Made by a program: the position numbers and the translations under genes
Assembly: GCA_900764105.1 (NCBI GenBank)
Contig: CAAFMS010000013.1
Coordinates: 28,445-92,444 of the forward strand
Source of the DNA: Clostridia bacterium
GTDB taxonomy: Bacteria > Bacillota > Clostridia > Christensenellales > Borkfalkiaceae
Length of the DNA stretch: 64,000 nucleotides
Reading direction: 5' to 3'
Shown: positions 11,697-60,569 of the stretch, one piece after another
Position numbering within the stretch: position 1 is the first letter of the stretch
Layout of the letters: each line of letters begins with the position of its first letter
The notes under the pieces: model-generated
What the model saw: only the letters and a program-made list of their open reading frames with translations
Told to the model about the DNA's origin: nothing
The model's database searches: none

Positions 11697-11890
11697 ATTT
11701 ATCCCCTATCGTCAAAATTTCGCTTACGCTCCATTTTGCCACTTCCCCCGAAGGAGGAAGCGACAAAGCGAGCGCTTCATATTGTAATACGTTATTTATG
11801 GTAAACACATAGAATTATTGCAAATCTAAGAGTTTAATTTCTGCTTCCTCCTTCGGGGGAAGTGGCGGCGTAGCCGACGATAGGGGATAA
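11697..11890. mobile_element. Family B hairpin repeat (rearranged copy B1), directly abutting A2.
   Basis: Contains ttatcccctatcg...gccacttcccccgaaggaggaagcg and, after about 75 bp, cttcctccttcgggggaagtggc...gataggggataaaa. Confidence 0.5.
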
Positions 11891-11928
11891 AAACGATTGA
11901 AAATGCGATTGGCTATTTATGTTTATTT

Positions 11929-12864
11929 TTATTCTCCGTTCGTCGTGAGAGATACGCCGTCTATCAGCCGTCCGTGGAAAGATAATTTAGCATATTCCGC
12001 TTTGTCGCCGTATAAAAGAAGTATCTCGTCGTCCGACCTGTGACACGGCGGCGGCAGAGCCGCCGAGAAATCCCCGAAAAAACCCCTGAGTTCGGCGGAT
12101 CTCGGGCGAAGCGACGGGGCGAGGAAATCGGCTACGTTCTTGCCGAGTTGCAATTCTTCGAAAAATGCGTACGGAAGCAGACAGTCGGGGACGGAGAATA
12201 ACTCTCTGCCCCTTTTTATTTCGGCTTTTCTGATTTTCACGCTTTCGCCGAATTGCCAATATGAAGTTACGACGTGATGAAGAGCGTCGTTTTTTAATTC
12301 CGTAATTACGACTTCGTCGCCTTTCGCCGAGTATTCGTCGCATTCCCGACGTAAAACCGTCTCGATTTTCTTTCCGAGTTTAAAGCCTGTCGCTATCGTT
12401 TTTTTCCCGGTCAGAAACACGAGCAGATAATTGTTTCCGTATACGCAGGCTTTTTCGATTTCTGCGGAAGTCGGTTTAAAGGCTATCCCTTCCGTCTTTT
12501 TATCTCCGTTTGCCGTCACCGATATTTTGACTCCGTTTTCTATGTAAACCGAAACTTCCGCAATGAAATCTGGGTACTCGACTTGCTTGAAAAATATCGA
12601 CTCATACTCGGATACGATTTGTCTTTTAAAGTTCGGAATAATCAAAAAAGCCCCGTATAAGTCGATTATCGAAGCGTTTTCCCATTTATCGACTGTTTTT
12701 TCATTCCACTGTAAACACACGGGAACGTAGTTTGCGGAAAAGGGTATAAATTCGATAAGCCCTTTTTCGGACGGTATAATCGAGTAATTTTCCGAGGCTT
12801 TTCCTATATATCTCCCGTTGAATTTTACCGCGCACGGTACCGAAGATAAAAAATATAGATACAT
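11929..12864 (-). CDS. Hypothetical protein, 311 aa.
   Basis: Long ORF with no recognisable motif. Confidence 0.5.
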   Translation of the reverse strand: MYLYFLSSVPCAVKFNGRYIGKASENYSIIPSEKGLIEFIPFSANYVPVCLQWNEKTVDKWENASIIDLYGAFLIIPNFKRQIVSEYESIFFKQVEYPDFIAEVSVYIENGVKISVTANGDKKTEGIAFKPTSAEIEKACVYGNNYLLVFLTGKKTIATGFKLGKKIETVLRRECDEYSAKGDEVVITELKNDALHHVVTSYWQFGESVKIRKAEIKRGRELFSVPDCLLPYAFFEELQLGKNVADFLAPSLRPRSAELRGFFGDFSAALPPPCHRSDDEILLLYGDKAEYAKLSFHGRLIDGVSLTTNGE

Positions 12865-12974
12865 TTCAGAGTTTCTCCGTTAAATTATACTCGAAATTTC
12901 TCGCGAATATGTATTTTAATCGTTTTCGTTGTCAATAATTTTCACGTCAAATAAACGATGAGACGGAGGAACTT

Positions 12975-13574
12975 ATGAGCAAAATCAAAGAAAGCGAACT
13001 AAAAAGGTTATTTTCGGAAGCGGAAAAGGCTAAAAAATCGGGAACGAGTCTCGGAAAGGTGTTCGAGACGATTGCCTCCGAAACGGGCAGGGCGAAGGGT
13101 AGCGTGAGAAACGCCTATTATTCTACCTTAAAAAAATCGCAGTCGGACGAGATACTGAAAAAGAACGTTTTAGGAAATAAAACGCTTACCGTTACCCCTA
13201 TAATATGCTTTAATGATAACGAAACGGATAAAATTATCCGCGAAATACTGTCGGGAGCGACTTTAGGTAAGTCTGTAAGGCGTATGACGAGAGAAATGGC
13301 GAAAGACGAAAGGGAAGCGTTGCGGTTTCAGAATAAGTACCGAAACGCTTTAAGGTGCGACCGCCCGAGAGTGGAACGGATAAGAAGCGAACTTAAAAAC
13401 GAGGTCGGAAGATGTTATGACCCCTACGAGAAAAAGAGGGGTAAAGACTTGCTTTTAGAAAAGTTAAAAGCCGAGATAAACGCCTTATACGAGAGGATAG
13501 CGCAAAAAGCGAGAGACGAAAACCGACTTTTAAAAGAGGAGTTGAGGCGATGCCGCGAAGAGTTGAGTAAGTAG
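12975..13574 (+). CDS. Hypothetical charged, coiled-coil-rich protein, 199 aa.
   Basis: ORF preceded by gagacggagg; K/E/R-rich, with no recognisable domain. Confidence 0.45.
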   Translation: MSKIKESELKRLFSEAEKAKKSGTSLGKVFETIASETGRAKGSVRNAYYSTLKKSQSDEILKKNVLGNKTLTVTPIICFNDNETDKIIREILSGATLGKSVRRMTREMAKDEREALRFQNKYRNALRCDRPRVERIRSELKNEVGRCYDPYEKKRGKDLLLEKLKAEINALYERIAQKARDENRLLKEELRRCREELSK

Positions 13575-13857
13575 CCGAGCGAGATTCGAACCCCATCAAG
13601 CCTTAAAGCCGTCTTTTTTGCATATTTTTGCAAATTCTCGCTCGATGTATTGATATACACCTTCGTTCGCCTTTACAACAATCTGCTAAAAAATACGGCT
13701 TTAAGGTGTTACGCATTTTAACGGCGATAAATTTAGGAAAATCAAGGCAAACGAACGCCGTCATACTTGCCGTATTACAAGAGAGTTTAACGCCGATTTT
13801 ACAAATTTCGCGCCGTTAAAACTTAATGGAGTTTGAATCTCGCTCGGCTATGGCGGC
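13573..13857. repeat. Long-stem inverted repeat, a candidate structured ncRNA or another small mobile element.
   Basis: tagccgagcgagattcgaacccca (13573-13597) pairs with ggagtttgaatctcgctcggcta (13833-13857). A nested second stem ccttaaagccgt (13609-13620) pairs with acggctttaagg (13696-13707). The outer arms contain a TTCGAA(T) T-loop-like motif. Confidence 0.4.
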
Positions 13858-13964
13858 GATTGCCAAAACGCCGAAAATATTTCGAAAGCGGAAAAGTTTT
13901 TCGCAGTTTCCGCGGCGGACGATAAAAAAATATAACTAATATATAAAAATTGCCGAATTTGAAT

Positions 13965-13998
13965 TGACAAAATCTCCCGAATTGTATAAAATGTATAT
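13965..13998 (+). promoter_or_regulatory. Sigma-A promoter for the surface-protein gene.
   Basis: ttgaca, 17 nt, then tgtataaaat (extended -10). Confidence 0.5.
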
Positions 13999-14083
13999 GT
14001 TTATTTTTATACTCTGTCTTTGTCTGCGGGTAAGTCTGCGGTCGGAAGAGTATAGGCACTACTAAAATTTGGGAGCAATTATC

Positions 14084-15760
14084 ATGAAGAACAGAAAGTT
14101 TTTAGGCGTATTCTCTTTTCTTTTGAGCGTATGTCTTTTGTTCGCGACTTTGCCGTTTGTTTCCGCAAGCGCAGACGAAACGACCGTCGAGCCGACGAAA
14201 GTCAACGTTTACGAGGCTGAATCGTGCAAAATCGGGAGACTCGATCTCGGCGACGTTAAAGTCAAAGTCGGCGAAAATTCGCTTATTTCCGAGGGCTTGA
14301 CAGTTAAGAAAGGCGGAACCGAAGTTAAAGTTTACGTTGACGGAACGATAAATACGGAAACCGACAAATGTTGGGTCGCGGTATCGGGAAGCGACAGCGA
14401 TACCGAAAGAAAGGTTACTTCTATAAAGTTCGATACGTTAAAGGACAGCGAGGATAAAGCCGTTTATACCGTTTCGGCGAACGGCAAAACCGCAGAAGTT
14501 ACGGTATACGACAAAGAGCAGAAAACAGCGGACAAGATTCTCGTAGAGAAAACCGACGTCGCGCTCGACGCCTCGAAAATTAAAATCGACGCCGAGAAGA
14601 AGAGAGTTACGCTTGAGAAAGACGAGATATGGAAAATACTCGACGAGACTTCCGTAATTCGCGACGCGGACGATTTGTCGGCGAGAATTTATCTCAGAAC
14701 CCCCGGCGGTTCGTGGCCGTCTTCCGCGACCAAGACTTTGTCGGGTTCTTCGAGCGACGTCGAACTTACCGTTTCGTCTCGCGGAGATTATCATTTCTAC
14801 GTTCTTTTCACCGATAACAAAGGCAATACCACCGAAAAGAACGACAAACTCGTAGAGAAAGTAGACGGCTTCTATAAGGTCGAAGGCGAAGGCGAGGCTA
14901 AAACGGAAACGAAAGTAATTCCGATTTTCTCGTTTGCTTACACGCCCGACGAAACCGTTAAAGTTAAATGTTCCAATACCGACAAGGTTAAGAAAGGTTA
15001 CGAAGGGCAGATTCAGAAGTCTGTAACCTACACTTTGGAAAACGCTACCGATAAAGACGTTGAATTCGTCCTTATGTTTAAGGCGGAAAATTCGACCGAG
15101 TGGAAAAAAGCGGTAAGCGGAAAGGACGCAAAATTCGACGAGAGCAAATTCACGAAGTCTTCGCTTGAATTCACGCCGCTTAAAAAAGGCGAGTATTCGT
15201 TCAGGGTAAACGCGGAAGGTATGGCCGACCCCGCCTTGAAAGAGGGAGCGGACGGCAACGTGGTAATTCGCGTTACCGACAGCGTAACCATAGTTAAACG
15301 TGAAAACACGGCGCTTATCGATTTTGCCAAGAGCAACTGGAAATCGCTTATATTCCTCGGAATCGCGGTTCTTTGCCTTATAGCGATAATCGTTATAGCG
15401 TGCTGGAAACCGAAGGATAAGACGGCTGTCAGAAGACAGATCGAGGACTCCGTCGAAAAGGACGGCAAGAAGAACGACAAGGTTTCCGAGACCAAGAATG
15501 CCGAAGACGAGGCGACCGAGGCTGCCGACTTAACGGAAGAAGCGGTTGAGGCGAAAGAAGAGAACGCCGAAGATACGGCCGAAGTCGCTCCCGAGACGGA
15601 AGTAACGGAAGAAGCGAAAGTCGAAGGCGAAACTCCCGTAGAAAACGCGGAAGAAGTCGCAAGCGAAACTCCCGCAGAGAACGCAGAAACTCCCGCAGAA
15701 AGTTCGGAGGCTCCCGTTGAGGCTCCCGCAGAGAACGAAAGCGGAGACAAAGCGGAATAA
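14084..15760 (+). CDS. Secreted, membrane-anchored surface protein with an acidic E/A/T-rich C-terminal tail.
   Basis: Signal peptide MKNRKFLGVFSFLLSVCLLFATLPFVSASA and a C-proximal TM helix LIFLGIAVLCLIAIIVIACW. Followed by repeats of ENAE(T/D)PAE... GGGAG RBS 9 nt upstream of 14084. Confidence 0.6.
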   Translation: MKNRKFLGVFSFLLSVCLLFATLPFVSASADETTVEPTKVNVYEAESCKIGRLDLGDVKVKVGENSLISEGLTVKKGGTEVKVYVDGTINTETDKCWVAVSGSDSDTERKVTSIKFDTLKDSEDKAVYTVSANGKTAEVTVYDKEQKTADKILVEKTDVALDASKIKIDAEKKRVTLEKDEIWKILDETSVIRDADDLSARIYLRTPGGSWPSSATKTLSGSSSDVELTVSSRGDYHFYVLFTDNKGNTTEKNDKLVEKVDGFYKVEGEGEAKTETKVIPIFSFAYTPDETVKVKCSNTDKVKKGYEGQIQKSVTYTLENATDKDVEFVLMFKAENSTEWKKAVSGKDAKFDESKFTKSSLEFTPLKKGEYSFRVNAEGMADPALKEGADGNVVIRVTDSVTIVKRENTALIDFAKSNWKSLIFLGIAVLCLIAIIVIACWKPKDKTAVRRQIEDSVEKDGKKNDKVSETKNAEDEATEAADLTEEAVEAKEENAEDTAEVAPETEVTEEAKVEGETPVENAEEVASETPAENAETPAESSEAPVEAPAENESGDKAE

Positions 15761-15867
15761 AAGAAATCAAACCGTTCGGGTTATCCCGAGCGGTTTTAAA
15801 TTATCCGAAGAATCGCGGATATTTCTGTTTTGCGGCAGAACCTCTATTTTGAGCGTAAGGCAGACAA

Positions 15868-16070
15868 CGCTTCCTCCTTCGGGGGTAATTTCCTCCATTG
15901 AAGCGGAGAAAATATTTCAATATTCGCTTCCTCCTTCGGGGGAAGTGGGTTGACGGAATGAAATGGAAGTCAAGCCGATAGGGGATAAAATAAATGAGCG
16001 TTTGAATTGTCCCCTATCGTCGAAATCTCGCTTACGCTCTATTTTGCCACTTCCCCCGAAGGAGGAAGCG
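15868..16070. mobile_element. Family B hairpin repeat copy B2.
   Basis: Termini cgcttcctccttcgggggaagtgg and ccacttcccccgaaggaggaagcg with internal gataggggataa / ttgtcccctatc sub-palindromes. Confidence 0.6.
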
Positions 16071-16162
16071 AGGGGGTACAGTTGCAAATCTTCCGAATGA
16101 GAAAGCAAAGAAAAATATCTTACTTGACAGAGGTCGGAAAAGGTAAATTCTGTCGAAAACAG

Positions 16163-16191
16163 TTGACTTTAAATCTACAATAATATATAAT
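16163..16191 (+). promoter_or_regulatory. Consensus sigma-A promoter of gap.
   Basis: ttgact, 17 nt, then tataat. Confidence 0.55.
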
Positions 16192-16277
16192 GTATTCGGA
16201 AAATTTCGGACAGGCGGTTATTTATCGCCGCGTTTGAGAAATAATTATTATGATATTTATATCGGAGGACAAATAAA

Positions 16278-17339
16278 ATGGCAAATGTAAAAGTAGCAAT
16301 TAACGGCTTCGGTAGAATCGGACGTCTTGCTTTCAGACAGATGTTCGGCGCTGACGGTTACGACGTAGTCGCAATCAACGACCTTACAAGCCCCAAAATG
16401 CTTGCGCACCTTTTGAAGTACGATACGGCTCAGGGCAGTTACGTCGCTCAGGGACATACCGTAACGTATAAAGATTCCGTACTCGGCGAAGACGGAAAGA
16501 CGGTTGTAGTACCCGGTTCTATCACCGTTGACGGAAAGGAAATCACTATATACGCTTGCCCGAAGGCCGCTGACCTTCCGTGGGGCAAACTCAAAGTAGA
16601 CGTCGTTCTCGAATGTACGGGCTTCTATACTTCCAAAGAGAAGTCTATGGCTCACATTCAGGCAGGCGCGAAGAAAGTCGTTATTTCCGCTCCCGCTGGC
16701 AACGATCTTAAAACTATCGTATTCAACGTAAACAACGATAAACTTACCGCTGAAGATCAGATTATTTCGGCTGCTTCCTGCACCACGAACTGTCTTGCTC
16801 CTATGGCTAAGGCTCTTAACGATACTTATCCCATTCAAAGCGGTATCATGACGACCGTTCACGCTTACACGGGCGACCAGATGATTTTGGACGGACCGCA
16901 CAGAAAGGGCGACCTCAGAAGAGCAAGAGCGGGCGCTATGAACATCGTTCCTAACTCCACGGGCGCGGCAAAAGCAATCGGACTCGTTATCCCCGAACTT
17001 AACGGTAAACTCATCGGTTCTGCTCAGAGAGTTCCCACTTGCACAGGTTCGACCACTATTTTGGTTGCTGTTGTCAAGGGTAAGGATATCACGAAAGACA
17101 GCATCAACGCCGCTATGAAAGCCGCTTCTAACGAATCGTTCGGCTACAACACCGACGAAATCGTTTCTTCGGACGTTATCGGTATGAGATTCGGTTCGCT
17201 CTTCGATGCTACTCAGACTATGGTTGCTAAGATCGACGACGATACTTATCAGGTACAGGTAGTTTCTTGGTACGACAACGAGAACTCTTACACTTCTCAG
17301 ATGGTAAGAACTATCAAATATTTCGCTAACATTAAATAA
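16278..17339 (+). CDS. gap: Type I glyceraldehyde-3-phosphate dehydrogenase.
   Basis: NGFGRIGR Rossmann motif, catalytic [10 protein letters not shown], 353 aa; GGAGGA RBS. Confidence 0.95.
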
Positions 17340-17354
17340 TTGTTTTAAGAAATA

Positions 17355-17397
17355 TATAAAACCGCCCTCCGCGAGGTTTCCTCGCGGAGGGCGGTTT
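17355..17397 (+). terminator. Rho-independent terminator of gap.
   Basis: aaaaccgccctccgcgagg / cctcgcggagggcggttt hairpin. Confidence 0.7.
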
Positions 17398-17442
17398 GCC
17401 GTTATATTAAGTTGTTAAATGTTTTGTTCGGGCTTTCGGCTT

Positions 17443-17946
17443 TTAAGCCCGCTTTTCGGTTCCGTCGGCGTTGTCCGTATCGTCTGCCTTGTCGGTATCG
17501 CTTACTTCGCGGTCTCCGCCTCGCAGGCTGTCGGATAAGTCGCCGCTTCGCGAGACCTCTTCGGTATCGTAGCCGTTTTTACCGTCGATTTCGTTTTTGC
17601 CGTTAATGCCGTCGTTGTCGTTGGCGTTTTCGGCGTCGTCGGTATTGCTGCCGATGTTGCCGTCGTCTTTATTGTAGTCCTTTTTATAAGGCAAACGAAT
17701 AAGATACGACGCGCCCAAGATGCTTGCGCTTTTTTCTATCAGAAACGCCGCGTCTTTTTCGGAAACGGCGATATAGACAGCGTAAAAAACCACCGAGAGT
17801 ACCGACCTTATGACAAAATCGTGTTTTTTTTCGAGCGACGGAAACAATTTGCTTATGACGAGTATCGCCATGCTCACTAAAAGAGCAGGCACAAACACGT
17901 CGATTCCGTAACGTTCCAAAATAGCGTATAAGTTGATATTTTCCAT
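17443..17946 (-). CDS. Membrane protein with a D/N/G-rich disordered C-terminal tail.
   Basis: Two predicted TM helices, then a low-complexity acidic region, 167 aa. Hairpin cgggctttcggcttttaagcccg just 3' of the stop. Confidence 0.5.
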   Translation of the reverse strand: MENINLYAILERYGIDVFVPALLVSMAILVISKLFPSLEKKHDFVIRSVLSVVFYAVYIAVSEKDAAFLIEKSASILGASYLIRLPYKKDYNKDDGNIGSNTDDAENANDNDGINGKNEIDGKNGYDTEEVSRSGDLSDSLRGGDREVSDTDKADDTDNADGTEKRA

Positions 17947-18468
17947 TTTCCACCGCCTTTTGACCGAGCGATAAAAGTCGCTTTTCGGCGGTTAGCCAGA
18001 GGTGATTGCGTCCGAACTCGGTCTTGCTTTGCGTTTTGGCGGGTTCAACACAATCGCCTGTGGCTTAGCCGCGTTAAATCAATCTTGGTCAGAAACTTCG
18101 ACGGAATATAACGCGGGAAATGCGTTTTCGGGAAGTTCGGGCGCGGAGCGTTGCGAAACGTCGTTGATAATTTTTCGCAAGTAATATTTTTCCGTAAATT
18201 CATCACCGCCTTTGGTCTATTTTTATCAGACGCGCGGTAATTATAACGCGGAATATTCAAAAATCAATACGCTTGTGAACGATTTTTCCTAAGTTTTTAA
18301 TCGGGCGTTTGACAGCCTGAACTTGCTTTTTTGTTTAGCATTATTGTAAAATACCGATTGTTTTCTTCTTTTAGAGGTTCTAAGTCGAATCACTCGCTTT
18401 TTTCTTCGGAAAAGTTAAAACTATATCCCCTTGCTACTTTTTTCGGGAGAATTGAAACGTTATTCCTT

Positions 18469-18614
18469 CGCTTCCTCCTTCGGGGGAAGTGGCAAAATCG
18501 AGCGTAGGCGAAATTTTGACGATAGGGGATAATTTAAAGGCTCGTTTATTCTATCCCCTATCGGTTTGACTTCCATTTTATTCCGTCAAACCACTTCCCC
18601 CGAAGGAGGAAGCG
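18469..18614. mobile_element. Family B hairpin repeat copy B3 (opposite orientation to B2).
   Basis: cgcttcctccttcgggggaagtggcaaaatcgagcgtaggcgaaattttgacgataggggataa ... tatcccctatcggtttgacttccattttattccgtcaaaccacttcccccgaaggaggaagcg. Confidence 0.65.
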
Positions 18615-18652
18615 AACGTTGTGATACTCTCCTTGCTCAGACGTCAATTTTA

Positions 18653-30396: not shown

Positions 30397-30517
30397 TAAC
30401 TATCTAATCTCGCATTTCCTTAATTGAAGCGGAGGAAATGTAGCGAAGCGACAAAAGAGGTTAGTAGTGGCGTTTTGCTTTGCAAGAGTTGTTTATCTAA
30501 AAGTAAATAGTAAAAAT

Positions 30518-30730
30518 CGCCTTCTCCTTCGGGGAAGGTGGCAAATTGAGCGGTTTTCCGCGAAGATTTGACGGAAGGGGACAATAAATCACTGCTTTTT
30601 ATTGGTTTGTGTTTTATCCCCTATCGGCTTGACTTCCATTTCATTCCGTCAACCCACTTCCTGCCTCTTTTGTCGCTTTGCGACATTTCCTCCGGTTCAA
30701 CGGAGGAATTTGCCCCCGAAGGAGGAAGCG
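30518..30730. mobile_element. Family B hairpin repeat copy B4 (variant arms plus an internal extra hairpin).
   Basis: cgccttctccttcggggaaggtggc ... tttatcccctatcggcttgacttccatttcattccgtcaacccacttcc ... cccgaaggaggaagcg. Confidence 0.6.
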
Positions 30731-30928
30731 GTCAATGTACGTCTCTTTCGTTTTATCGGGAGAGTATATCTTGGAAGGGGAAGTATGAAAGATAATTCTT
30801 TCACATTTTTTCCGAAAAAACGTATTGAAAAAGCAAAAACAGTTTAATTGTAAAAAATACGGATATTTACCCGTTGCGGTAAATATCCGTATTTCCCTAT
30901 TTTCTACATTTTCTGCATTGTTTGGTTT

Positions 30929-33702: not shown

Positions 33703-33826
33703 AAAACGGAAAGGGTTTAAATACCGACGAAAGAATAGCGAAGCGACAGAGTATATATGCGGAACTGTCCGTATGTTCTCGCTTTCCCCTTTGAAGTTGA
33801 TTGTTTTGTTTATGTTTTATTTCTTG

Positions 33827-33967
33827 CCGTCACCTTCGGGGAAGGTGTCGCTGAAAGCGACGGAAGGGGACAATAAATCACTACTACATTTCGCTTTACA
33901 TTTTTATCCCCTATCGTCAAAATCTCGCTTACGCTCTATTTTGCCACTTCCCCCGAAGGAGGAAGCG
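33827..33967. mobile_element. Family B hairpin repeat copy B5.
   Basis: caccttcggggaaggtg ... ttatcccctatcgtcaaaatctcgcttacgctctattttgccacttcccccgaaggaggaagcg. Confidence 0.6.
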
Positions 33968-34152
33968 TTGTTTGCCGTTTTTACAATGTCTGCCGCTTTA
34001 ACGGAATGGGAAAGCGAGTCGGATAGTTGCGTTATAAAGCAAGCAATAGTTCAAAAATTCGTATCTATTTATAAAAGCCTCGGGCGGAATTTCCATTGAA
34101 ATTCCGCCCGAGGCTTTTGCTATGTGTTTTACTTTATTTTTTTCGCAATTTC

Positions 34153-52240: not shown

Positions 52241-52268
52241 GTAGGGGACGGCGCCCCCGACGTCCCGC
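52241..52268. repeat. Solo family A terminus adjoining composite repeat C.
   Basis: gtaggggacggcgcccccgacgtcccgc. The preceding about 90 bp (52141-52240) is about 80% identical to 63071-63160. Confidence 0.5.
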
Positions 52269-52374
52269 TTTTCTCTGTTTACAACCCCGTTTACTATACG
52301 CGATTGTTTCTTCGAAGTAAAATAGTCGGAAAGCTTTATCTGCCGATTTGCTGCGGGGAAATTAAAATCACTCG

Positions 52375-52530: not shown

Positions 52531-52762
52531 ATTCACAAGCGATGGCGTATTTAACGCTATTTTATGATTTGTCGAGAATGGTAATAATTTTACAAGGCGG
52601 CGGAAAATTTAATTGCGATTAAGAAGAGTATAGAAAAGGAAGGCGGCGTCGCCCCTTCGGTTTTGTGCGTTATATGCGGACTATTAAACGCTGCGTACGT
52701 TCGTCCGGACGGCGTTTACGTTACGCCTGTTACCGCTCTTAAAGATTAACGGGGGTGCTTTT

Positions 52763-53593
52763 ATGATTTGGTTTTTTATCGCCGCAATATGTTTGATTTT
52801 CGTTGCGGTCGTTTTTATCGTTCTAAGAGAAAGAAAATACAAAAAATTTATTCTCGAAAACAGCGTAACTCTCGGTAAACTTCGCGAGGTCAACGATAAA
52901 TATTATTTCTTTAACCTTGTCAATTACGATATGAGTAATACCTATGATAATCAGGACTTCTATAACGATATAAGTTGTCGGGATTACCTCACGTACCAAC
53001 TTCAATTTAAGAAAAAAGAGATTTCGGAACAGATTTTCAAAGCGGAAAAGAACAGGGAAAATTATCGCAAATACAGAGACGAAATAAAGTCGATAAACAA
53101 AATAGGGACATTTCGCGACGATACGGGGAAACTAAATAAAGAAAAACTTATAAAAACGGAAAAGAAAATATGCAATAAAACCGCGCTTTCTCCGTCGCTC
53201 GATTATTCGGTAAAGGTAACGTTATATTGTTCTAAGATAAACGGAAGGAAATATGAGGGTAAAAGTCAAATATTTTCTTCCGACGATATACTTTTTATCA
53301 TATCGAAAGGGATAGACGATAAAATCGGTCAGTTCTATAAAAATAAGGACGTATGGGACTCTATATGTCGGGTTGAGCGTGGAAAAGTGTCTAACGCAAT
53401 GAGGTTTTCTATATATAAACGCGATGGTTATAGATGCCGAATGTGCGGAATTTCGGACAGGTTTGCAAATCTTGAAGTCGACCATATAATTCCGATTTCC
53501 AAAGGCGGGAAATCGACTTACGACAACCTGCAAACGTTGTGCCACAGGTGCAACGTACAGAAGGGCAATAGTATGCCGTATAAAAAACATTGA
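52763..53593 (+). CDS. Membrane-anchored HNH endonuclease-domain protein, AT-rich.
   Basis: N-terminal TM helix IWFFIAAICLIFVAVVFIVL. About 190 aa of unknown K/E-rich domain. C-terminal HNH motif RDGYRCRMCG...LEVDHIIPISKGG...DNLQTLCHRCNVQKG. Markedly lower GC than its neighbours. Confidence 0.65.
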   Translation: MIWFFIAAICLIFVAVVFIVLRERKYKKFILENSVTLGKLREVNDKYYFFNLVNYDMSNTYDNQDFYNDISCRDYLTYQLQFKKKEISEQIFKAEKNRENYRKYRDEIKSINKIGTFRDDTGKLNKEKLIKTEKKICNKTALSPSLDYSVKVTLYCSKINGRKYEGKSQIFSSDDILFIISKGIDDKIGQFYKNKDVWDSICRVERGKVSNAMRFSIYKRDGYRCRMCGISDRFANLEVDHIIPISKGGKSTYDNLQTLCHRCNVQKGNSMPYKKH

Positions 53594-53606
53594 CGATTTG
53601 AGAATA

Positions 53607-53682
53607 TAAAAGCGGCTGTAAAGGATATAGAGTAAGACGGCGGTTTTGCCGTTATGCCAAGTATCCTTTACAGCCGCTTTGG
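53607..53682. terminator. Long bidirectional terminator hairpin between the HNH gene and pgm.
   Basis: aaagcggctgtaaaggata ... tatcctttacagccgcttt (18-bp stem). Confidence 0.6.
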
Positions 53683-53711
53683 TTGTTTAGATTATTATTT
53701 ACTGAATTCCG

Positions 53712-55346
53712 TTATAAAGTCGTCGAAACGTAGGCGAGAAGGTCGTCTTTTAATTTCGCCGACTTTTCTTCCGTTTCCGCATTCGTCAATGCGTAAAATT
53801 TCAACTTCGGCTCCGTGCCGCTCGGTCTTACTACGAGTTCGAATCCGTCGCCTTTGTATTTCAGTACGTCGCTCTTCGGTAGTCCGTCTATTCCGAGGGA
53901 GTAGTCCTTTACGCTTTCGACCTTTCGTCCGAGTATCTCTTTCGGCGAATTGCTTCTAAGGTTTTTCATAAAGTCCGACATAAATATCATTCCTTGTTCG
54001 CCCTCGAAATACTTCGAGTAAAGCCCCGTCGAATAATATCCGAATTTTTCGTAAATATCGTTTAAAGCCTCGATTAAATCAAGTCCTTTTTCCTTATAGT
54101 AGCACACCGCTTCGACTATCGTCATTACCGCCGAAATCGAGTCTTTATCCCTCGCGTGAACGCCGACCAAGTAGCCGTAACTCTCTTCCATTCCGAACAG
54201 GAAATTCTCTTTTTTCGCCCTGTCTATCGTCTCGCCGATATACTTGAAACCCGTGAGTACGCTGTAAGTTTTTACGCCGAACGCCGCCGCGATTTTTTCG
54301 ATGAGCGGAGAAGATACGACCGTTTCGACAACGTAGGAATTTTTCGGGATTTCGCCTTTCGCCTTTCTCACGCTGAGAAGATAGTATTCCATAAGCGCGC
54401 CTGTTTCGTTGCCGTTGAACAGCCTGTACGAACCGTCCTTGTCTCTTACCGCAATGCCCATTCTGTCCGCGTCGGGGTCGGTTGCGATAACGAGTTCCGC
54501 CTTTTCCTTTTCGGCGAGTTCCAACGCCTTTTTCAAAGCGGCTTTTTCTTCGGGGTTCGGGAACGGGCAAGTGGTGAAGTTGCCGTCGGGGTTTTCCTGC
54601 TCGGGAACGACCGTGTAGTCCGTAATTCCCATTTTCGCGAGTATTTTTCTGACGGGAACAAGCCCCGTGCCGTTGAGCGGAGTATATATTATCTTCGGGG
54701 CGAATTTCTTGTCGAACGGCAGAGAATAGCCGTAAATCGTATCGATAAATTCATCGAGAATTTCGTCGCCCAAAACGTGTACGAGCGACGGGTTTTTATC
54801 GAATTTCTCGAAATAATCGTGTTTTTCGATTAAGTCGGTCACTTCGTTTGCGGCTTCGTCGGTGAGTTGACAGCCTTTATCGTTGTACGCTTTGTAACCG
54901 TTGTATTCCTTCGGGTTATGACTTGCCGTAATGACAAGTCCGCCTCCCACGCCGAGACTTCGAACGGCAAACGAGAGTACGGGGGTAGGGGTCAAGCGGT
55001 CGAAAACGTAAGCCGTAACGCCGAAAGAAGAAAGTACGTCAGCCGCTAAAAAAGCGAATTCTCTCGACATATTTCTGCTGTCGTAGGCTATGCACGCCGA
55101 TTTTTTGCCGTTTGCGATAAGATAATCTGCAAAGCCCATAGTCGCCCTGCCGACCGTGTAAACGTTCATACGGTTAGTTCCGACGCCGATTTTGCCGCGA
55201 AGTCCGCCCGTGCCGAATTTCAGTTCTTTGTAAAATCTGTCGTTGATTTCGTCCGCATTGTCTTTTATGCTTTCGAGCTCGGCTTTTAAAGGGTCGCCGT
55301 CAGGCAGTTTTTTAAGCCATAACGAGTATTTTTCATTCATAAACAT
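53712..55346 (-). CDS. pgm: Phosphoglucomutase/phosphomannomutase (alpha-D-phosphohexomutase).
   Basis: TASHNPKEYNGYK phosphoserine loop and GDPDADR metal loop. 544 aa. Confidence 0.85.
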   Translation of the reverse strand: MFMNEKYSLWLKKLPDGDPLKAELESIKDNADEINDRFYKELKFGTGGLRGKIGVGTNRMNVYTVGRATMGFADYLIANGKKSACIAYDSRNMSREFAFLAADVLSSFGVTAYVFDRLTPTPVLSFAVRSLGVGGGLVITASHNPKEYNGYKAYNDKGCQLTDEAANEVTDLIEKHDYFEKFDKNPSLVHVLGDEILDEFIDTIYGYSLPFDKKFAPKIIYTPLNGTGLVPVRKILAKMGITDYTVVPEQENPDGNFTTCPFPNPEEKAALKKALELAEKEKAELVIATDPDADRMGIAVRDKDGSYRLFNGNETGALMEYYLLSVRKAKGEIPKNSYVVETVVSSPLIEKIAAAFGVKTYSVLTGFKYIGETIDRAKKENFLFGMEESYGYLVGVHARDKDSISAVMTIVEAVCYYKEKGLDLIEALNDIYEKFGYYSTGLYSKYFEGEQGMIFMSDFMKNLRSNSPKEILGRKVESVKDYSLGIDGLPKSDVLKYKGDGFELVVRPSGTEPKLKFYALTNAETEEKSAKLKDDLLAYVSTTL

Positions 55347-55354
55347 ACACCTTT

Positions 55355-56113
55355 TTAAACTTCCCTTCGCCTTGCGATTAAATATCCTATCGCGACGAAG
55401 ATTACAAAGTATATCGCCGAGCCTATGAGGGTTATGGCGATTGTTTTGTCGGTAAGGTTGAGACTCGTCGCGTTCTGAAGCATTTCGCCGAGCCAGTAGT
55501 TAAGGATATTGATTTTTGTATTTTTGCAATATCTTATTACGATTATCGAAACGAGCGAAAAGGTAAGAGGGAAAACTAAAATATGGGATAGTACCGTGGT
55601 GGCGATTGCTCCTCCGACGCCCTTGAACAATGAGGACAAACCGAAGAAAAATCCGCCGTATGCGATAATGACGGGAAGTTGAAGAAATACCGAACCCCAC
55701 AAACCTTTAGCGGGTTTCACTCTCGTGAGAAACGCCGCGCCGAACGCCATTGCGGACAATTCGCTGACGATAAAGAAAGCGACGCTGACCGCAACTACCG
55801 CTACAAGTTGAGATAAAAATATCGACGTTCTCGAATATCCCTTCGCTATAATATTTTTTATAGTGCCGCCTCCGAAGTCTGAAACCGCGTACAGCGACAC
55901 GAACACGGCAAGCGGTATGGGTACCACCGACGACGCTGTAATAACAGCGTCCCACATGCTCGGTTTATTCGATTCCGTCCATTCGTAGAGGACGTTTGAA
56001 AGACTTGAAATCAACGTGGTGAAAAATATCTGAAAAAGGACTACCGCCGCGCAGACGTAAAGACTTTTCATTCTGACCAGTTTCCTAAACTCAAACTTCA
56101 ACATATCAATCAT
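55355..56113 (-). CDS. ABC-2-type transporter permease.
   Basis: 6 TM helices. Overlaps the upstream ATPase stop by 4 nt. Confidence 0.6.
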   Translation of the reverse strand: MIDMLKFEFRKLVRMKSLYVCAAVVLFQIFFTTLISSLSNVLYEWTESNKPSMWDAVITASSVVPIPLAVFVSLYAVSDFGGGTIKNIIAKGYSRTSIFLSQLVAVVAVSVAFFIVSELSAMAFGAAFLTRVKPAKGLWGSVFLQLPVIIAYGGFFFGLSSLFKGVGGAIATTVLSHILVFPLTFSLVSIIVIRYCKNTKINILNYWLGEMLQNATSLNLTDKTIAITLIGSAIYFVIFVAIGYLIARRREV

Positions 56114-57006
56114 TTGCCCAACCTCTCTATAAAGTAATCTTCGAGTCCGCCGCCAAACACAGCGAGTTCTTCAACGGACACGCCCGATTTTATGAGCAGC
56201 GAGCCGTATGCAGCCGAGTTTACGGACGACTTGGGCAAAAGAAGTTCGTTTCCCTTTCTCTTTATCTCGATTTCGGGGAAGGCGTCGGCAAGTATTTTTT
56301 CCGCCTTTACGCCGTCGTCAACGACTATTTTCAGCCCGTTTTCGCATCGCTTTTGAATTTCCTCCGCAGATATTTCTTCTACGAGTTTTCCGTCGTTGAT
56401 TATTCCGTATTTCGTAACGATTTTCGCGAGTTCGTCGAGCAGGTGGCTCGATATTAAAAAGGTAACTCCTTTTTCCTCTTTTAGCCTTAAAATGCAGTCT
56501 CTTATTTCCTTTATTCCCTCGGGGTCGAGTCCGTTTACGGGTTCGTCCAAAATCATTATTTCGGGGTTGCCGAGCAGAGCGATCGCTATTCCGAGCCTTT
56601 GCTTCATGCCGAGCGAAAAGCGACCCGCTTTTTTATTACCCGTGTCCGACAGTCCGACGAGTTCGAGACAGTTTTTGATGTCCTCGTCCGTTCCGCCGCT
56701 TAAAATAGAAAATCGTTTCATATTTTCGTACGCGGTACAGTTTTTATAAAGCCCCGGGGTTTCGATAAGCGAGCCGATTTTTTTTCTTGCCTTGCTTTTT
56801 TCCTCGCCGCCGAAAAAGACGACGTCTCCCTCGTCTGGGAAGGCAAGTCCTAAAATAAGCCTCATGGCGGTGGTTTTTCCTGCGCCGTTTCTGCCTATAA
56901 ATCCGTAAATGTCGCCGCGGCAAAGGGTTATATTGACCTTATCCACCGCGACTTTGTTTTTAAATCTTTTCGTGAGATTTATCGTCTGCAAAACTATTTC
57001 GTTCAT
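56110..57006 (-). CDS. ABC transporter ATP-binding protein.
   Basis: Walker A GRNGAGKTT, signature SLGMKQRL, Walker B ILDEPVNGLD. 298 aa. Confidence 0.85.
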   Translation of the reverse strand: MNEIVLQTINLTKRFKNKVAVDKVNITLCRGDIYGFIGRNGAGKTTAMRLILGLAFPDEGDVVFFGGEEKSKARKKIGSLIETPGLYKNCTAYENMKRFSILSGGTDEDIKNCLELVGLSDTGNKKAGRFSLGMKQRLGIAIALLGNPEIMILDEPVNGLDPEGIKEIRDCILRLKEEKGVTFLISSHLLDELAKIVTKYGIINDGKLVEEISAEEIQKRCENGLKIVVDDGVKAEKILADAFPEIEIKRKGNELLLPKSSVNSAAYGSLLIKSGVSVEELAVFGGGLEDYFIERLGK

Positions 57007-57027
57007 AAAAACTCCTGTAAAGTTTGT

Positions 57028-57534
57028 CTATTCGATGTTTTTCGTCCTTGTGTTTTTTATATTTTTTACTATATAATATCCCGCTGTCGCTACCATAGAA
57101 CCGACGGTCGCTCCGAGCGTGTCCATTCCTACGTCGAGCCATTCAGAGCCTCTGCCTCGGATAAATTTTTGAAGTATAAATTCGTCCGAAAGGGCGACTA
57201 AAAAGCACAAGGCTATAGAAAACAACGCCGTATAATATTTTGGAACCTTGAAATCGAAAGAGACGAGGAACAAAAGCAGGAAAAACGACAGGGCGCAAAA
57301 TTCGAGCGAATGGGCGATTTCCCTGAGCGTAGGGTGGATACGCCGTACTTCGGCTTCCTTTTGAGGCTCGGACATATCTTTAAATCCGGGAACGATTACC
57401 GTCGCTACGATTTCGGTTACGTTTTTACTCGTTTCGGCTGATTTCTCGCCCGTTTTCGCCGAATTATATATGACGAAAGCAAGGCATAGAATAGTCATAA
57501 ACCCCGTTATAAGTCGATAAATCAACAATTTCAT
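57028..57534 (-). CDS. VanZ-like membrane protein.
   Basis: 4 TM helices and an R..H..EF..L..FLL motif (REIAHSLEFCALSFFL). Confidence 0.55.
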   Translation of the reverse strand: MKLLIYRLITGFMTILCLAFVIYNSAKTGEKSAETSKNVTEIVATVIVPGFKDMSEPQKEAEVRRIHPTLREIAHSLEFCALSFFLLLFLVSFDFKVPKYYTALFSIALCFLVALSDEFILQKFIRGRGSEWLDVGMDTLGATVGSMVATAGYYIVKNIKNTRTKNIE

Positions 57535-57537
57535 ATA

Positions 57538-60189
57538 TTATTCCTTGAACAGATATTTCCTCTCGAAGAACATAGAGGTTGCGAAAAGCGATACCGCGAG
57601 AATAATTACCGCAGAGGCTTTCATTACGTTTCTGCGGCTCGTTTTTACTATCGACGAGTCTTTGACGTACCCCGTTTTGCCGTCGTATAAAATCTCCGCG
57701 TAACCGTCTTTAACGGAGAGCAGATATACCTTCTTATTTTTTTCAATGACGTCCGTTTCCGTTTCGAGGTCGTCCGAATATACCGTCGCGCCGCCTTTCG
57801 CGTAAACGTAGCCGCTGTCGACGTTCGTGTAAACTCCGTCGGACAAAAAGCCCTCTCTTAAAAACGAGACGGGTATAAATCCCTGTTTTTCGCCTTGTTT
57901 TACGACGTAATAATCTTTGCCGTTAAATGTGACTTTGCCCGTAATTTCGACCGCCGAACGTTTTTCGATATCTTCGCCGAGAATATACGGCTTACTTAAA
58001 ACGGGTATTCCGTACAAGCCGAAGTCTACCGCCGCGTACATTTTCCTGCCGTCTGCGGCTGTAAGTCCGAAAACGCTGTCGCTGACTAAATCGGTCTTTC
58101 TGGCGATTGCCGTCTTGCCCTCTTTCATTATGAAGTAGTACTTGTCGCCGAGGTCTTTTATAACGTATTCGTCCTTGCCGTCTTCTTTCGCGAATCGTCT
58201 GAACGGGAAATATTCGTTTTCGAAATTCTTTTCGGTCTCGAAGAGTTTTGCCCCTTCGCGTATTTTTCCGAAAGAAATATTCTGCGAATATTTAACGTCG
58301 AAAGTGTCGGGAATTTTTATCGTATACGGCGTCGCTATATCGAGGTCGGCGGCGTTCGACGAGTTTAAGATAAAGCCGTTGAAAATGAAGAACGCCTTGT
58401 CGGAATCGCACGACAGACACATTGATTTCGCAGGTTCTATATCGCCGAGGTTCGACGAGGTTTCTATCGTCATTTTAACGTTCTCGCGGTAAATTACGTT
58501 GTTTTTGAACAGCGCGTAAAGGTTTCCGTCGAGGTCGGTCTGAAGGTTTAAAAGAGAATCTTTTTCCTCGGTTATCGTATAGGGAAGAGCGGTTTCGACG
58601 CCGTTCGCGTATTGATAAAAGTTATACTTGCCGTTTTCGTAAACAGACCAGTATAAAGCCCCGAACACGTCGCAGGTTATTTCGCCCGCTCTCGATTCGT
58701 TTCCGGTAGTATGTAATTCGTCAAGAGAAAATTCCTCTTTCGTCACGTCGAGGGTGTAAATTACGGGTCGGATTTTTCCGTCCGTATACGACGTGAAACT
58801 CAGAACGTAAAACTTGCCGTCCATATAGCAAACGTCGTCTATCGAGTTCGGAAGCTTTCCCGTCTGATTGTTTATCGTAACATTTTTGAGTTCGCACGGC
58901 AAAATTGGGTTGTTCTCGTCCGAATAGTCGATTTTAAGCAGAGACACGTCCGAGCCTCTGACGAGAAGTATATATCCGTTTCCGACCGCGAAATTTTCTA
59001 CGCTTCCTATGTTTATGTTGTCGTCTACGAGATTTATGCGGTTGTACGTTCTGTTTTCGGAATTTATATCGTTTATTATGACTATTCTCGTTCCGTCGAG
59101 GGCGTAGATTTTATCGCCTTCCATTACGATTTTCGAAGCGTTCGCCGTGAGACGGTTTACAGCCGACGAGTTGGTCGTGATCGCGAATTTCGTGAACGTT
59201 CTCGTCTTTAATTCTATTTCCTGTACTGCGTTTATATCTATATCGACTATCCAAAGTCCCGTTTCGGTAAGGCAGATGCCTCTCGGATTCCACAGTTTGC
59301 CGAGGTCTTTCGTCTCGCCGTCGGGGATCGATATTTTACAGATGGTGACTATGTCGTTTCCGTTGTAGTTGGGGTTGACGGAGTAAACGCCCGTATCGGT
59401 GGTGAAGTAGACGTTATTGTCCGACGCGTCCTCGCTTTCGGCAATCGAACGGACGTCCGAAAGTCCGCTTACGATCGTTCTCGTAGTATTCTCCGTCTGG
59501 TCGTATTCGGTAATAACGCATTTGTCGTCCGCTTTCGCGCTGTTCGCCGCAAAGTAGGTCTTGCCGTTTTTCGAGAGCATAACCGACTTTAAATCGCCTT
59601 TGTTTATGGCGAGATCTTCCCGTTCGGCAAAGCCGAGTCCCGTCTCGGTTTCGGTAAGTTCGTAATAGGTGACCTGCGTGGAAGTCGTAACGGCGAGAAG
59701 ATTGCCGCACACCGAGAAACTGTTGCTGCAAGAACAGACCGTTCTCACGCTTTCGCCGATATTGTTAAAGTCCGAAATGTCAACGTAGTATATGTACGAT
59801 TTCTGAGTGAAGAGGAGATATTTCCCGAATCTCGCGAGCGAGGGAACGCCCTCGTCGTCCTCGTTATAGCCTTCGAGCGGAATTTTCTTGAACGTCTCGT
59901 TTCCCGTGTCTTTATCGTTGTCGTAGACGACTATTTCGCCCGCGTGGGAAATCGCCACGAACTCGCTGTTGCCGTTTTTATACCGACAGATGGCGTAAGG
60001 TTTGTTGAGTTTGTAGTATTGCAGATAACTCGTCGGCAAAAATATGTCCGTGGAAACCTTCTTTTCCGCCGTTTCTTCCGTCGTAGCGGCTTCGTTTTCG
60101 GCTTTTGCAGTCGGATAGCCCGAAAGGGGAGTAGTTGCAAATCCTATTATCGCAAGTAATATTAAAAACAAAGACATGACTTTTTTCAT
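57538..60189 (-). CDS. Large secreted surface protein (883 aa) with a C-terminal TM anchor and an SH3b-like module.
   Basis: Signal peptide; a long repeat-poor region, possibly beta-propeller-like. GGATVYSDDL...YVKDSSIV is SH3b-like. Terminal TM helix. First gene of an operon with VanZ, ABC-2 and pgm. Confidence 0.5.
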   Translation of the reverse strand: MKKVMSLFLILLAIIGFATTPLSGYPTAKAENEAATTEETAEKKVSTDIFLPTSYLQYYKLNKPYAICRYKNGNSEFVAISHAGEIVVYDNDKDTGNETFKKIPLEGYNEDDEGVPSLARFGKYLLFTQKSYIYYVDISDFNNIGESVRTVCSCSNSFSVCGNLLAVTTSTQVTYYELTETETGLGFAEREDLAINKGDLKSVMLSKNGKTYFAANSAKADDKCVITEYDQTENTTRTIVSGLSDVRSIAESEDASDNNVYFTTDTGVYSVNPNYNGNDIVTICKISIPDGETKDLGKLWNPRGICLTETGLWIVDIDINAVQEIELKTRTFTKFAITTNSSAVNRLTANASKIVMEGDKIYALDGTRIVIINDINSENRTYNRINLVDDNINIGSVENFAVGNGYILLVRGSDVSLLKIDYSDENNPILPCELKNVTINNQTGKLPNSIDDVCYMDGKFYVLSFTSYTDGKIRPVIYTLDVTKEEFSLDELHTTGNESRAGEITCDVFGALYWSVYENGKYNFYQYANGVETALPYTITEEKDSLLNLQTDLDGNLYALFKNNVIYRENVKMTIETSSNLGDIEPAKSMCLSCDSDKAFFIFNGFILNSSNAADLDIATPYTIKIPDTFDVKYSQNISFGKIREGAKLFETEKNFENEYFPFRRFAKEDGKDEYVIKDLGDKYYFIMKEGKTAIARKTDLVSDSVFGLTAADGRKMYAAVDFGLYGIPVLSKPYILGEDIEKRSAVEITGKVTFNGKDYYVVKQGEKQGFIPVSFLREGFLSDGVYTNVDSGYVYAKGGATVYSDDLETETDVIEKNKKVYLLSVKDGYAEILYDGKTGYVKDSSIVKTSRRNVMKASAVIILAVSLFATSMFFERKYLFKE

Positions 60190-60408
60190 TGTTTCTTTCG
60201 CTCGTTTTTCGTTGATATTAGAGAGAATCGTCTCGCATACGCAAAGATATATATTCTCTCATACTAAGTATAACATATAACCAAGCGAGTTGACAATAGT
60301 TTTTTCCTTTTTCGGGGAAAATTTTTGTGTGAAAGTTTTAGGGGATAGGAAATTTTGGTTGTAAAAAACGAGAATCTAATTTTAATTTAAGACGCAAACA
60401 GTTAACTA

Positions 60409-60569
60409 TGCTTTCTCCTTCGGGGAAAGTGGCTTGACGGAATGAAATGGAAGTCAAGACGATAGGGGATAAAAACGAAAATTTGTAAAAATCAGTGCTT
60501 TATTGTCCCCTTCCGTCAAATCTTCGCTGATAGCCGCTCGATTCGCCACCTTCCCCGAAGGAGAAGGCG
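60409..60569. mobile_element. Family B hairpin repeat copy B6.
   Basis: ctttctccttcggggaaagtggcttgacggaatgaaatggaagtcaagacgataggggataaaaa ... tttattgtccccttccgtcaaatcttcgctgatagccgctcgattcgccaccttccccgaaggagaaggcg. Confidence 0.6.

Follow-up and report, generated by a model that had tools for sequence, protein, structure and literature searches.

A REP-like hairpin-repeat family of uncultured gut Clostridia and its association with genes for a putative DUF559 nuclease

What are the six hairpin-forming repeats that occur at about one per 10 kb in a stretch of DNA from an uncultured gut bacterium, and what might have dispersed them? The stretch in question, hereafter the window, comprises 64,000 nt of a Clostridia bacterium (GenBank assembly GCA_900764105.1, contig CAAFMS010000013.1, positions 28,445 to 92,444), has a GC content of 45.6 % and is 86-92 % identical to contigs of CALGVF01 and CAAFZH01. 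A first-pass annotation, made from the letters of the window, described the repeats as family B, with copies B1 to B6. Bacteria commonly carry dispersed hairpin repeats, most of which have no known origin or enzyme, the exceptions being repetitive extragenic palindromes (REPs) and their hairpin-forming doublets (REPINs), which are linked to REP-associated tyrosine transposases (RAYTs), and the miniature inverted-repeat transposable elements (MITEs) that derive from insertion sequences (ISs). Family B, as assessed here, is on balance probably a set of dispersed non-coding repeats akin to REPs and to bacterial interspersed mosaic elements (BIMEs), with B1 to B6 as gene-less copies of sites recognised by nucleases of the DUF559 family. 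The findings suggest a repeat system of REP-like kind whose partner enzyme had gone unrecognised.

The building block of family B is a unit of 47-67 nt that consists, from 5′ to 3′, of a first hairpin, a second hairpin and a G-rich tail. Hairpin 1 reads yGC-CTTCC-T-CC-TTCG-GG-GGAAG-TG, its loop being C(TTCG)G and a single T being bulged; hairpin 2 varies in both sequence and length, and is self-complementary in every case. Type I units end in the tail GATAGGGGATAA, and type II units have a hairpin 1 of the form CCTTC-T-CC/GG-GAAGG and the tail GGAAGGGGACAA. A covariance model (CM), R1, built on 71 non-identical units and run over the window with filters off, finds 12 strong units (E 2e-21 to 1e-6), which form exactly six inverted pairs at the six places of the first-pass annotation. 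Additionally, the 25-mer CGCTTCCTCCTTCGGGGGAAGTGGC has eight matches in the window at up to three mismatches, against none in shuffles, and GATAGGGGATAA has nine, against 0.24 expected. The six places are therefore real, but what had been taken at each for a single element is an inverted pair of units (Table 1). The 25 bp described as a shared terminus are indeed terminal in B2 to B6, where the units stand tail-to-tail, but are internal in B1, a head-to-head pair with its GATAGGGGATAA tails outermost. Instead of two alternative arms of about 40 bp, the window holds at least five hairpin 2 variants and two unit subtypes, and the central loop, supposedly variable, proves to be a spacer whose length is fixed at 18, 29-30 or 79 nt; spacers of the 19- and 30-nt classes are conserved in copies elsewhere. 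B2 and B3 are I/I tail-to-tail pairs, B3 being the reverse-oriented counterpart of B2 (91.8 % identical), B4 and B5 are II/I, and B6 is I/II. The start of B5 moves by two nucleotides, from 33827, and four decayed pieces have to be added to the tally of six.

Compensatory changes, named beforehand as the test of a conserved structure, are abundant in both hairpins. Across the alignment of the 71 units, the two-hairpin structure pairs 94.6 % of cells, against 81 % with shuffled partners and 38-59 % when slid by 1-3 columns; half of the base pairs (7/14) show changes on both sides, and each of the three inner pairs of hairpin 2 occurs as three or four different Watson-Crick pair types. Because the core of hairpin 1 and the GC/GTG feet were prescribed by the pattern used to extract units, their invariance is partly imposed; the same feet recur in a listing that required only the 11-nt core, and in the cross-clade alignment. 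Folded in silico, all six pairs form one long imperfect hairpin, as had been proposed (z -3.1 to -13.5 as RNA and -3.5 to -12.1 as DNA), within which the two hairpin 1 copies and the tails pair mutually and unlike hairpin 2 modules protrude as side arms.

Family B is restricted to one clade. A degenerate 24-mer, applied as an exact pattern to one genome per species (185,579 species), matched 82 stretches, all of them in five uncultured human-gut 'Clostridia bacterium' metagenome-assembled genomes (MAGs) and many of them at contig ends; viral contigs gave no exact match. This census, of the kind that the first-pass annotation had called for, yields at least 64, 44, 16, 12 and 4 units per MAG, or at least 140 in the five, the genomes being fragmentary and their assemblies breaking at B repeats. 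Within the window and the loci taken from these genomes (numbered, like all loci below, with the prefix L), nhmmer finds 155 units. Neighbouring units are paired at quantised distances: 29 pairs are tail-to-tail, with spacers of 17-20 or 30-34 nt, and 18 are head-to-head, with an AT-rich, sequence-conserved spacer whose modal length is 55 nt. Only two neighbour pairs are tandem, against 47 inverted, and 32 internal units are solos. No unit lies within a gene, in keeping with the earlier description of a dispersed, non-coding family, and units occupy 33 % of convergent gaps (15/46), 13 % of tandem gaps (31/232) and 5 % of divergent gaps (3/61). In the window, they are found between terminators and promoters or at the convergent ends of housekeeping genes, with neighbours that include GAPDH, SpoIIE, an M50 protease, NifU and a major facilitator superfamily (MFS) transporter. 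At the 23 pairs with both flanks available there is no target-site duplication, and the ends are sharp (yGC...GCr).

The genes bracketed by units are all housekeeping genes (Pth, MATE, RNase E/G, MetK and others) except for one, a 102-aa open reading frame (ORF) at locus L001 of CAAFZH. This ORF matches PF04480 (DUF559) with an E-value of 7e-28 and 97 bits, against a cut-off of 20.6, and PDB entry 3HRL (3HRL_A) with an E-value of 3.9e-16. Translations of the partner ORF carry a D...E-x-D-G-x-x-H motif, and its product is, judged from sequence, a putative Vsr-like PD-(D/E)xK nuclease. A copy 78-81 % identical to it is present at L033, in a different species, and at both loci the ORF stands where the spacer of a tail-to-tail pair would be, with its stop codon abutting a unit tail. 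At L085, an intact 119-aa DUF559 gene stands between a type I unit with a nested module and an inverted type I unit; the genes between B units thus range from 102 to 119 aa. The three loci share the gene-plus-unit module alone (86.5 % and 72 % identity) and, because their flanks differ, represent three unrelated genomic contexts. At L001, the unit-DUF559-unit arrangement lies upstream of the orthologue of the window gene 57538-60189 (883 aa), and its inner unit can be aligned with B6, as can, weakly, the adjacent flank. What looks like the site of B6 therefore carries the gene in CAAFZH and lacks it in the window and in CALGVF.

The association extends well beyond this clade. To our knowledge, DUF559 is among the commonest of the uncharacterised small nuclease families, occurring from E. 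coli to gut anaerobes, with no function assigned to it. A metagenome scan with the DUF559 protein of the clade gave 80 loci (41-95 % identity), and an unbiased BLAST of upstream against downstream flank revealed an inverted repeat across the gene at about 45 of 75 testable loci. The flank repeats of distant homologues share the B-unit design, an example being GCCTTCCCC-TTGA-GGGGAAGG-TG-GCGC-GAA-GCGC-C-GGATGAGGTGT. A strict full-unit detector, which requires hairpin 1, an adjacent hairpin 2 and a purine tail, scores 3.81 units per kb within 300 nt of a DUF559 gene, 0.077 per kb more than 700 nt away and 0.0105 per kb in shuffled loci, i.e. a 50-fold enrichment over distant DNA and a 360-fold enrichment over shuffles; a looser hairpin detector was dropped on account of too high a chance rate far from genes (48 expected vs 74 observed). 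By the strict detector, at least one unit is present at 55/79 DUF559 loci, and units are present on both sides at 30/67. The last codons and stop of the DUF559 ORF often lie inside a unit, and the tail of the upstream unit provides a Shine-Dalgarno-like GAGG before the start. Some lineages have alternating unit arrays on both sides of the gene. No open-access paper on DUF559 was found to describe hairpin-flanked elements or to link the family to hairpin repeats. The nearest hint is that, among predicted targets of programmed inversion with flanking inverted repeats, 'DUF559 domain-containing protein' is enriched, with an odds ratio of 14 (PMC9881135).

In E. coli, the DUF559 gene is ycjD (L163; NC_000913.3 1351000-1351830), and its surroundings have a similar layout. 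Its 3′ end runs into a CCCTC...GAGGG hairpin, its upstream side has a hairpin with a 16-bp stem that ends in AATGAGGTG, and a partial duplicate of its own 3′ end and a hairpin-plus-GGGTGAGGGG motif lie downstream. The 5426 complete E. coli genomes all carry this motif, with a median of 16 intergenic copies each. It may be the classical Box C repeat, which was reportedly first described next to envM/fabI. Box C of E. coli K-12 is a 56-bp repeat with 33 copies (PMC5172473). The motif beside ycjD, a GC-rich hairpin with a G-rich tail, resembles the DUF559-flanking units that have no hairpin 2 in environmental contigs such as L147 and L158; it differs from B units in the missing hairpin 2, and the nucleotide sequences are unrelated.

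Comparison with related genomes indicates that the copies exchange modules, as the first-pass annotation had supposed, and that they turn over slowly. The sites of B4, B5 and B6 are also occupied in the approximately 90 %-identical CALGVF genome, and these insertions are therefore old. At the orthologue of B4 (L074), the type II unit has another hairpin in place of hairpin 2, and the 53-nt nested module that accounts for the previously reported extra internal hairpin of B4 is absent; at the orthologue of B6 (L052), in contrast, the nested module is present, though missing from the window. This type III module sits at the same hairpin 1 junction in L052, L003, L085 and others, and junctions homologous to the B2 remnant are present in L005, L019 and L046. 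CALGVF has pairs at L058 and at the start of L039 where the window is empty, and copies inside one genome are 91-93 % identical, which argues for slow turnover rather than a recent burst. Next to the DUF559 gene of L083, on its 3′ side (3574-4028), a block of about 230 nt, in which a type I unit is accompanied by a degenerate hairpin 1 and by half of a hairpin 1 carrying a nested module, is tandemly duplicated, which implies that arrays can grow by local duplication.

From these observations, we infer that a DUF559 nuclease acts on the units and thereby disperses them. For this to happen, an inverted pair would extrude as a hairpin or cruciform, or would become exposed as single-stranded DNA; the nuclease would recognise and nick the folded unit or extruded pair; repair, recombination or copying after the nick would spread pairs to new gaps; and gene conversion would shuffle modules, including the hairpin 2 variants and the nested type III module, among copies. 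As a speculation, the G.T at the foot of hairpin 1, together with the bulged T, might mimic the T:G substrate of Vsr. The relation of family B to DUF559 may thus be read by analogy with that of REPs and REPINs to a single-copy RAYT gene.

Several observations weigh against this interpretation. The 64-kb window has no DUF559 gene; the spacers of gene-less pairs have no significant homology to DUF559 flanks, alignments of the two being no better than shuffles; and both DUF559 copies in the B-clade genomes look damaged, L001 having lost its ATG and L033 being frameshifted. At 24/79 DUF559 loci there is no unit. Recent activity must be low, because the copies are only 91-93 % identical and B4 to B6 are shared with a species at about 90 % identity. 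B units are colinear with 50 DUF559-flank units through GC, pyrimidine arm, loop, purine arm, TG, hairpin 2 and G-rich tail, but this shared design is partly imposed by selection, because the detector requires hairpins, and only the TG linker, the GAC/GCC foot and the GAnGRGG tail count as independent evidence; the unbiased flank-against-flank BLAST is the safer support. Finally, the orientation of units around the gene, judged from hairpin 2 and tail, is mixed, with (+,+), (-,+) and (+,-) all found, and the system is therefore not a simple transposon in which a gene is enclosed by terminal inverted repeats (TIRs). It is, rather, a matter of BIME-like arrays that harbour a DUF559 gene. Gene-less pairs and DUF559-bearing modules share their units, but the idea that the former are deletion derivatives that keep DUF559 flanks gained no support, spacer alignments with the untranslated regions (UTRs) of the gene being no better than shuffles.

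Among the alternatives to nuclease-driven dispersal, the one that fares best, while still unlikely, holds that DUF559 is a free-standing homing-type endonuclease that has invaded pre-existing repeats, cutting gene-less pairs and being copied into them by repair with the units as homology arms, and that the units spread by other means. The homing endonuclease I-Bth0305I is a member of the Vsr/EDxHD group, as is DUF559 (PMC3424549; PMC9403480). The spacer position of the gene, its presence in one and absence from two of three genomes at the apparent B6 site, the three contexts that share only units, and the large excess of units over DUF559 genes all speak for invasion. However, lineage-specific units accompany the gene in many distant lineages, often with few dispersed copies detected, which co-inheritance fits better, and the end of the ORF and the ribosome-binding region are built into the units.

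It is quite improbable that the units are instead strand-specific structured RNAs, located in 3′ UTRs or intergenic regions as stabilisers, processing signals or termination-related elements and selected by the host, with repetition as a by-product. The compensatory changes in both hairpins would suit such a role, as would an invariant C(UUCG)G tetraloop, which is a hyperstable RNA motif, and a G.T juxtaposition at the base of hairpin 1 that recurs across clades and is A.C on the opposite strand. Units are, moreover, enriched at gene 3′ ends, and B3 lies 39 nt past a stop codon with no other terminator. Covariation cannot separate RNA from single-stranded DNA, and hence does not decide between the two roles. 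On the other hand, Rfam 15 returned no gathering-score hit in the window or in 10 DUF559 loci, its E-value mode gave nothing on B units, and a tRNA scan found no tRNA genes in the window. A terminator scan called none of the units, no U-tract follows the hairpins, and separate terminators stand beside B2, B4 and B5; a terminator role is thereby ruled out. B2 and B5 lie downstream of likely terminators and ahead of promoters. Between gene ends and B5 (34072-34119) and B4 (30855-30894) there are long palindromes, perfectly matched and bordered by an A-run and a T-run, which are likely bidirectional terminators, and for this reason B4 and B5 may lie outside the upstream transcripts. The loops of hairpin 2 are mostly GAA/GNA closed by C-G, a motif of unusually stable DNA mini-hairpins, and the GAA loops may, speculatively, point to a fold at the DNA level. 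There is one sense and one antisense unit at every locus, which argues for a DNA symmetry and against an RNA, and a role as RNA leaves the tight linkage to DUF559 genes unexplained.

Less probable still, and in our estimation very unlikely, is an ordinary REP/REPIN family moved by a RAYT, or a set of IS200/IS605 palindromes, with the Y1 (HUH) gene outside the examined DNA. Family B does have the imperfect hairpin with an extrahelical T, the inverted doublets with a spacer and the lack of target-site duplications that would be expected, as well as intergenic placement, high copy number and vertical persistence. Against this, the 540 kb that surround all exact-pattern hits in the five genomes contain no transposase ORF that is multi-copy or unit-flanked, there is no GTAG-type 5′ tetranucleotide, and the unit-flanked gene encodes DUF559, not a Y1 transposase. 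An all-against-all clustering of 1479 ORFs near units returned only orthologues and spurious ORFs, and an HUH motif scan and a phmmer search found nothing, within the limits of an approximate IS200 TnpA query and of fragmentary MAGs. Finally, a cut-and-paste origin as classical TIR MITEs, through the DDE transposase of some IS not yet seen, is barely credible in spite of the inverted termini, small size and some polymorphic sites, given the absence of target-site duplications at the 23 fully flanked pairs, the use of the same unit in tail-to-tail and head-to-head pairs, and the failure to find a related transposase; the earlier MITE label thus holds for polymorphism between related genomes (L058, L039) and fails at the sharp, unduplicated ends.

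If a DUF559 nuclease does drive family B, a wider proposal follows, which is put forward tentatively and as somewhat less likely than not: DUF559 proteins, YcjD included, may be the missing partners of a second, RAYT-independent class of REP-like hairpin repeats. There might, in other words, be a widespread selfish or domesticated system in which a Vsr-like nuclease of about 110 aa recognises folded two-hairpin units, possibly via the conserved G.T or the bulged T, and drives their dispersal, pairing and module shuffling; family B, and conceivably Box C of E. coli, could then be gene-less progeny of that system. What is potentially new here is the DUF559 partnership, family B itself being a kind of REP-like dispersed hairpin repeat. 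The link would join two unknowns into one testable hypothesis, offering a concrete candidate substrate for YcjD-like proteins, a candidate engine for orphan repeat families and, possibly, a compact structure-specific DNA nuclease of practical use. It would also account for the breaking of related MAG assemblies at B sites. For the window, the repeat pairs, at about one per 10 kb, would be selfish or domesticated DNA and not genes for regulatory RNAs.

Table 1. Units, spacers, nested module and decayed pieces of family B in the window
Feature	Position	Strand	Support or remark
B1 left unit, type I, hairpin 2 CAAAAT...ATTTTG, tail outward	11699..11762	-	CM 81 bits, E 2e-21
B1 centre, 79-nt AT-rich spacer, head-to-head pair	11763..11841	.	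differs from conserved 55-nt spacer elsewhere
B1 right unit, type I, short hairpin 2 GGC-GTA-GCC	11842..11890	+	CM 68.3 bits, E 8e-18
B2 remnant (decayed), hairpin 1 5′ half and truncated nested type III module	15868..15924	+	CM 16.1 bits, E 0.006
B2 unit, type I, hairpin 2 CTTGAC...GTCAAG	15925..15988	+	CM 71.4 bits
B2 tail-to-tail spacer, 18 nt	15989..16006	.	spacer class 17-20 nt
B2 unit, type I, CAAAAT type	16007..16070	-	CM 75.9 bits
B3 unit, type I, CAAAAT type	18469..18532	+	CM 79.2 bits
B3 spacer, 18 nt	18533..18550	.	sequence
B3 unit, type I, TTGAC type	18551..18614	-	CM 70.8 bits
Decayed piece, type III module between TCGC and AGTGGC, hairpin 1 core lost	30410..30471	+	weak CM hit 30413-30464
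B4 unit, type II (CGCCTTCTCCTTCGGGGAAGG..., tail GGAAGGGGACAA)	30518..30584	+	CM 69.2 bits
B4 spacer, 29 nt	30585..30613	.	sequence, spacer class
B4 unit, type I, interrupted within hairpin 1	30614..30730	-	CM hits 30614-30682, 30683-30730; L074 alignment
B4 nested 53-nt type III module in hairpin 1, two small hairpins and AAAAGAGGCAG tail	30660..30712 (+/- ~2 nt)	-	
B5 unit, type II, short hairpin 2 GTCGC-TGAAA-GCGAC	33825..33873	+	CM 51.9 bits, E 4e-13
B5 spacer, 30 nt	33874..33903	.	conserved class AAAyGCAAAGCGAAACGTAGTAGTGATT
B5 unit, type I	33904..33967	-	CM 80 bits
Decayed AT-rich solo unit, TTTTCC..GGAAAA hairpin, tail AGGGGATAGG	60298..60349	+	CM 14.6 bits, E 0.015
B6 unit, type I, hairpin 1 variant CTTTC/GAAAG	60409..60472	+	CM 77 bits
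B6 spacer, 30 nt	60473..60502	.	conserved spacer class
B6 unit, type II	60503..60569	-	CM 68.6 bits
Decayed piece, lone palindromic hairpin 1 variant CTTGCTCTCCCCAAAGGGGAAAGCAAG	62975-63001		

Two of the decayed pieces have fuller counterparts in related genomes. At the site of 30410-30471, extra variant units add about 240 nt in the sister genome (L074), and the CALGVF region orthologous to 62975-63001 (L052, approximately 5840-6010) holds a complete inverted pair of a variant unit family, with the hairpin 1 CCTTCCCC-TTT-GGGGAGAG and the tail GAGAGAGGTC. Another recurrent hairpin module, ACGTCATATTGAGCGYAAGCGAAATATCCCAC, occurs in inverted pairs beside B unit tails (L001 1-45, L050 6100-6140, L057 6230-6340) and at many CAAFZH/CAVLAV loci, with the compensatory stem variants ATATT/AATAT and ATTCT/AGAAT; B units have the same loop, GAGCGTAAGCGA, in their long hairpin 2.

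Other elements share the neighbourhood of family B. A2, the family A element at 11498-11680 with 26-nt TIRs GGGACGTCGGGGCGCCGTCCCCTACG, abuts B1 across an 18-nt gap but is not nested in it, and the insertion hotspot proposed for 11498-11890 has a single adjacency as its support. G-rich motifs similar to family A (GGGGCGTCC...) terminate longer nested modules inside hairpin 1 in other genomes. A 285-bp element with the TIRs GGCTAGCCACAGGTGATTGCGTT, present in CALGVF (L039, approximately 160-444) and cleanly absent from the window (at about 36873), belongs to an unrelated MITE family, and its empty site is clear. Beside B6, the ORF 60654-62090 on the minus strand matches Terminase_6N (E 9e-13) and Terminase_6C (E 2e-9), is conserved in the sister genome and is a possible prophage remnant. 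Further on, an array of small cTTCGg/TTGC hairpins with GTGAAA/GTTATAT between them (63036-63180) scores 36.7, 32.2 and 21.8 bits against the Rfam family Gut-1 (RF01706), below the gathering score of 50; it could be either a Gut-1-like RNA that has diverged or one more hairpin repeat.

Among known systems, family B resembles the Correia elements (CREE), ERIC, RUP, BOX and the palindrome-associated transposable elements (PATEs) of IS200/IS605 in being small, non-coding, intergenic and hairpin-forming, and its modularity is reminiscent of pneumococcal BOX. It differs from these and from MITEs in the lack of target-site duplications, which excludes it from the class of elements defined by TIRs and such duplications, in the lack of a DDE or Y1 transposase relative, in the use of both inverted arrangements and in its link to DUF559. 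As for the partner, the PD-(D/E)xK superfamily contains a group in which DUF559 stands alongside Vsr and the EDxHD homing endonuclease I-Bth0305I (PMC3424549), and selfish behaviour is documented for I-Bth0305I (PMC3239194). The B partner ORF is assigned to the same fold group by its motif and its 3HRL match; unlike Vsr and I-Bth0305I, it is free-standing, with no intron or intein and no adjacent cytosine methyltransferase, and is embedded in hairpin repeats.

The functionally closest system is that of REPs, BIMEs and REPINs with their RAYTs (PMC3337134, PMC3116915). Family B differs from it in that the flanked gene encodes a Vsr-like DUF559 protein of the PD-(D/E)xK type instead of a Y1 HUH transposase, in that the unit has two hairpins and a G-rich tail and starts with yGC, where a REP has one hairpin with a GTAG head, and in that the host is an uncultured Firmicute clade rather than a proteobacterium, with unit orientation around the gene variable. 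Since the Y1 transposase, of which the 540 kb around all exact hits in these fragmentary MAGs contain no gene by the searches above, and the GTAG head are the molecular definers of REP-RAYT systems, family B would fall outside them. The likenesses are those of behaviour. As with REPs, the units are short, imperfectly palindromic and found only in intergenic DNA (12 in the 64 kb of the window), with no target-site duplication at pairs and a long vertical persistence (PMC3337134, PMC3116915); as with the Y and Z REPs of BIMEs, two subtypes alternate in inverted orientation with conserved spacers; as with REPINs, inverted doublets, which far outnumber tandem ones, fold into a long hairpin; and, as with RAYTs, many copies stand against one or a few small nuclease genes that are themselves flanked by the repeat.

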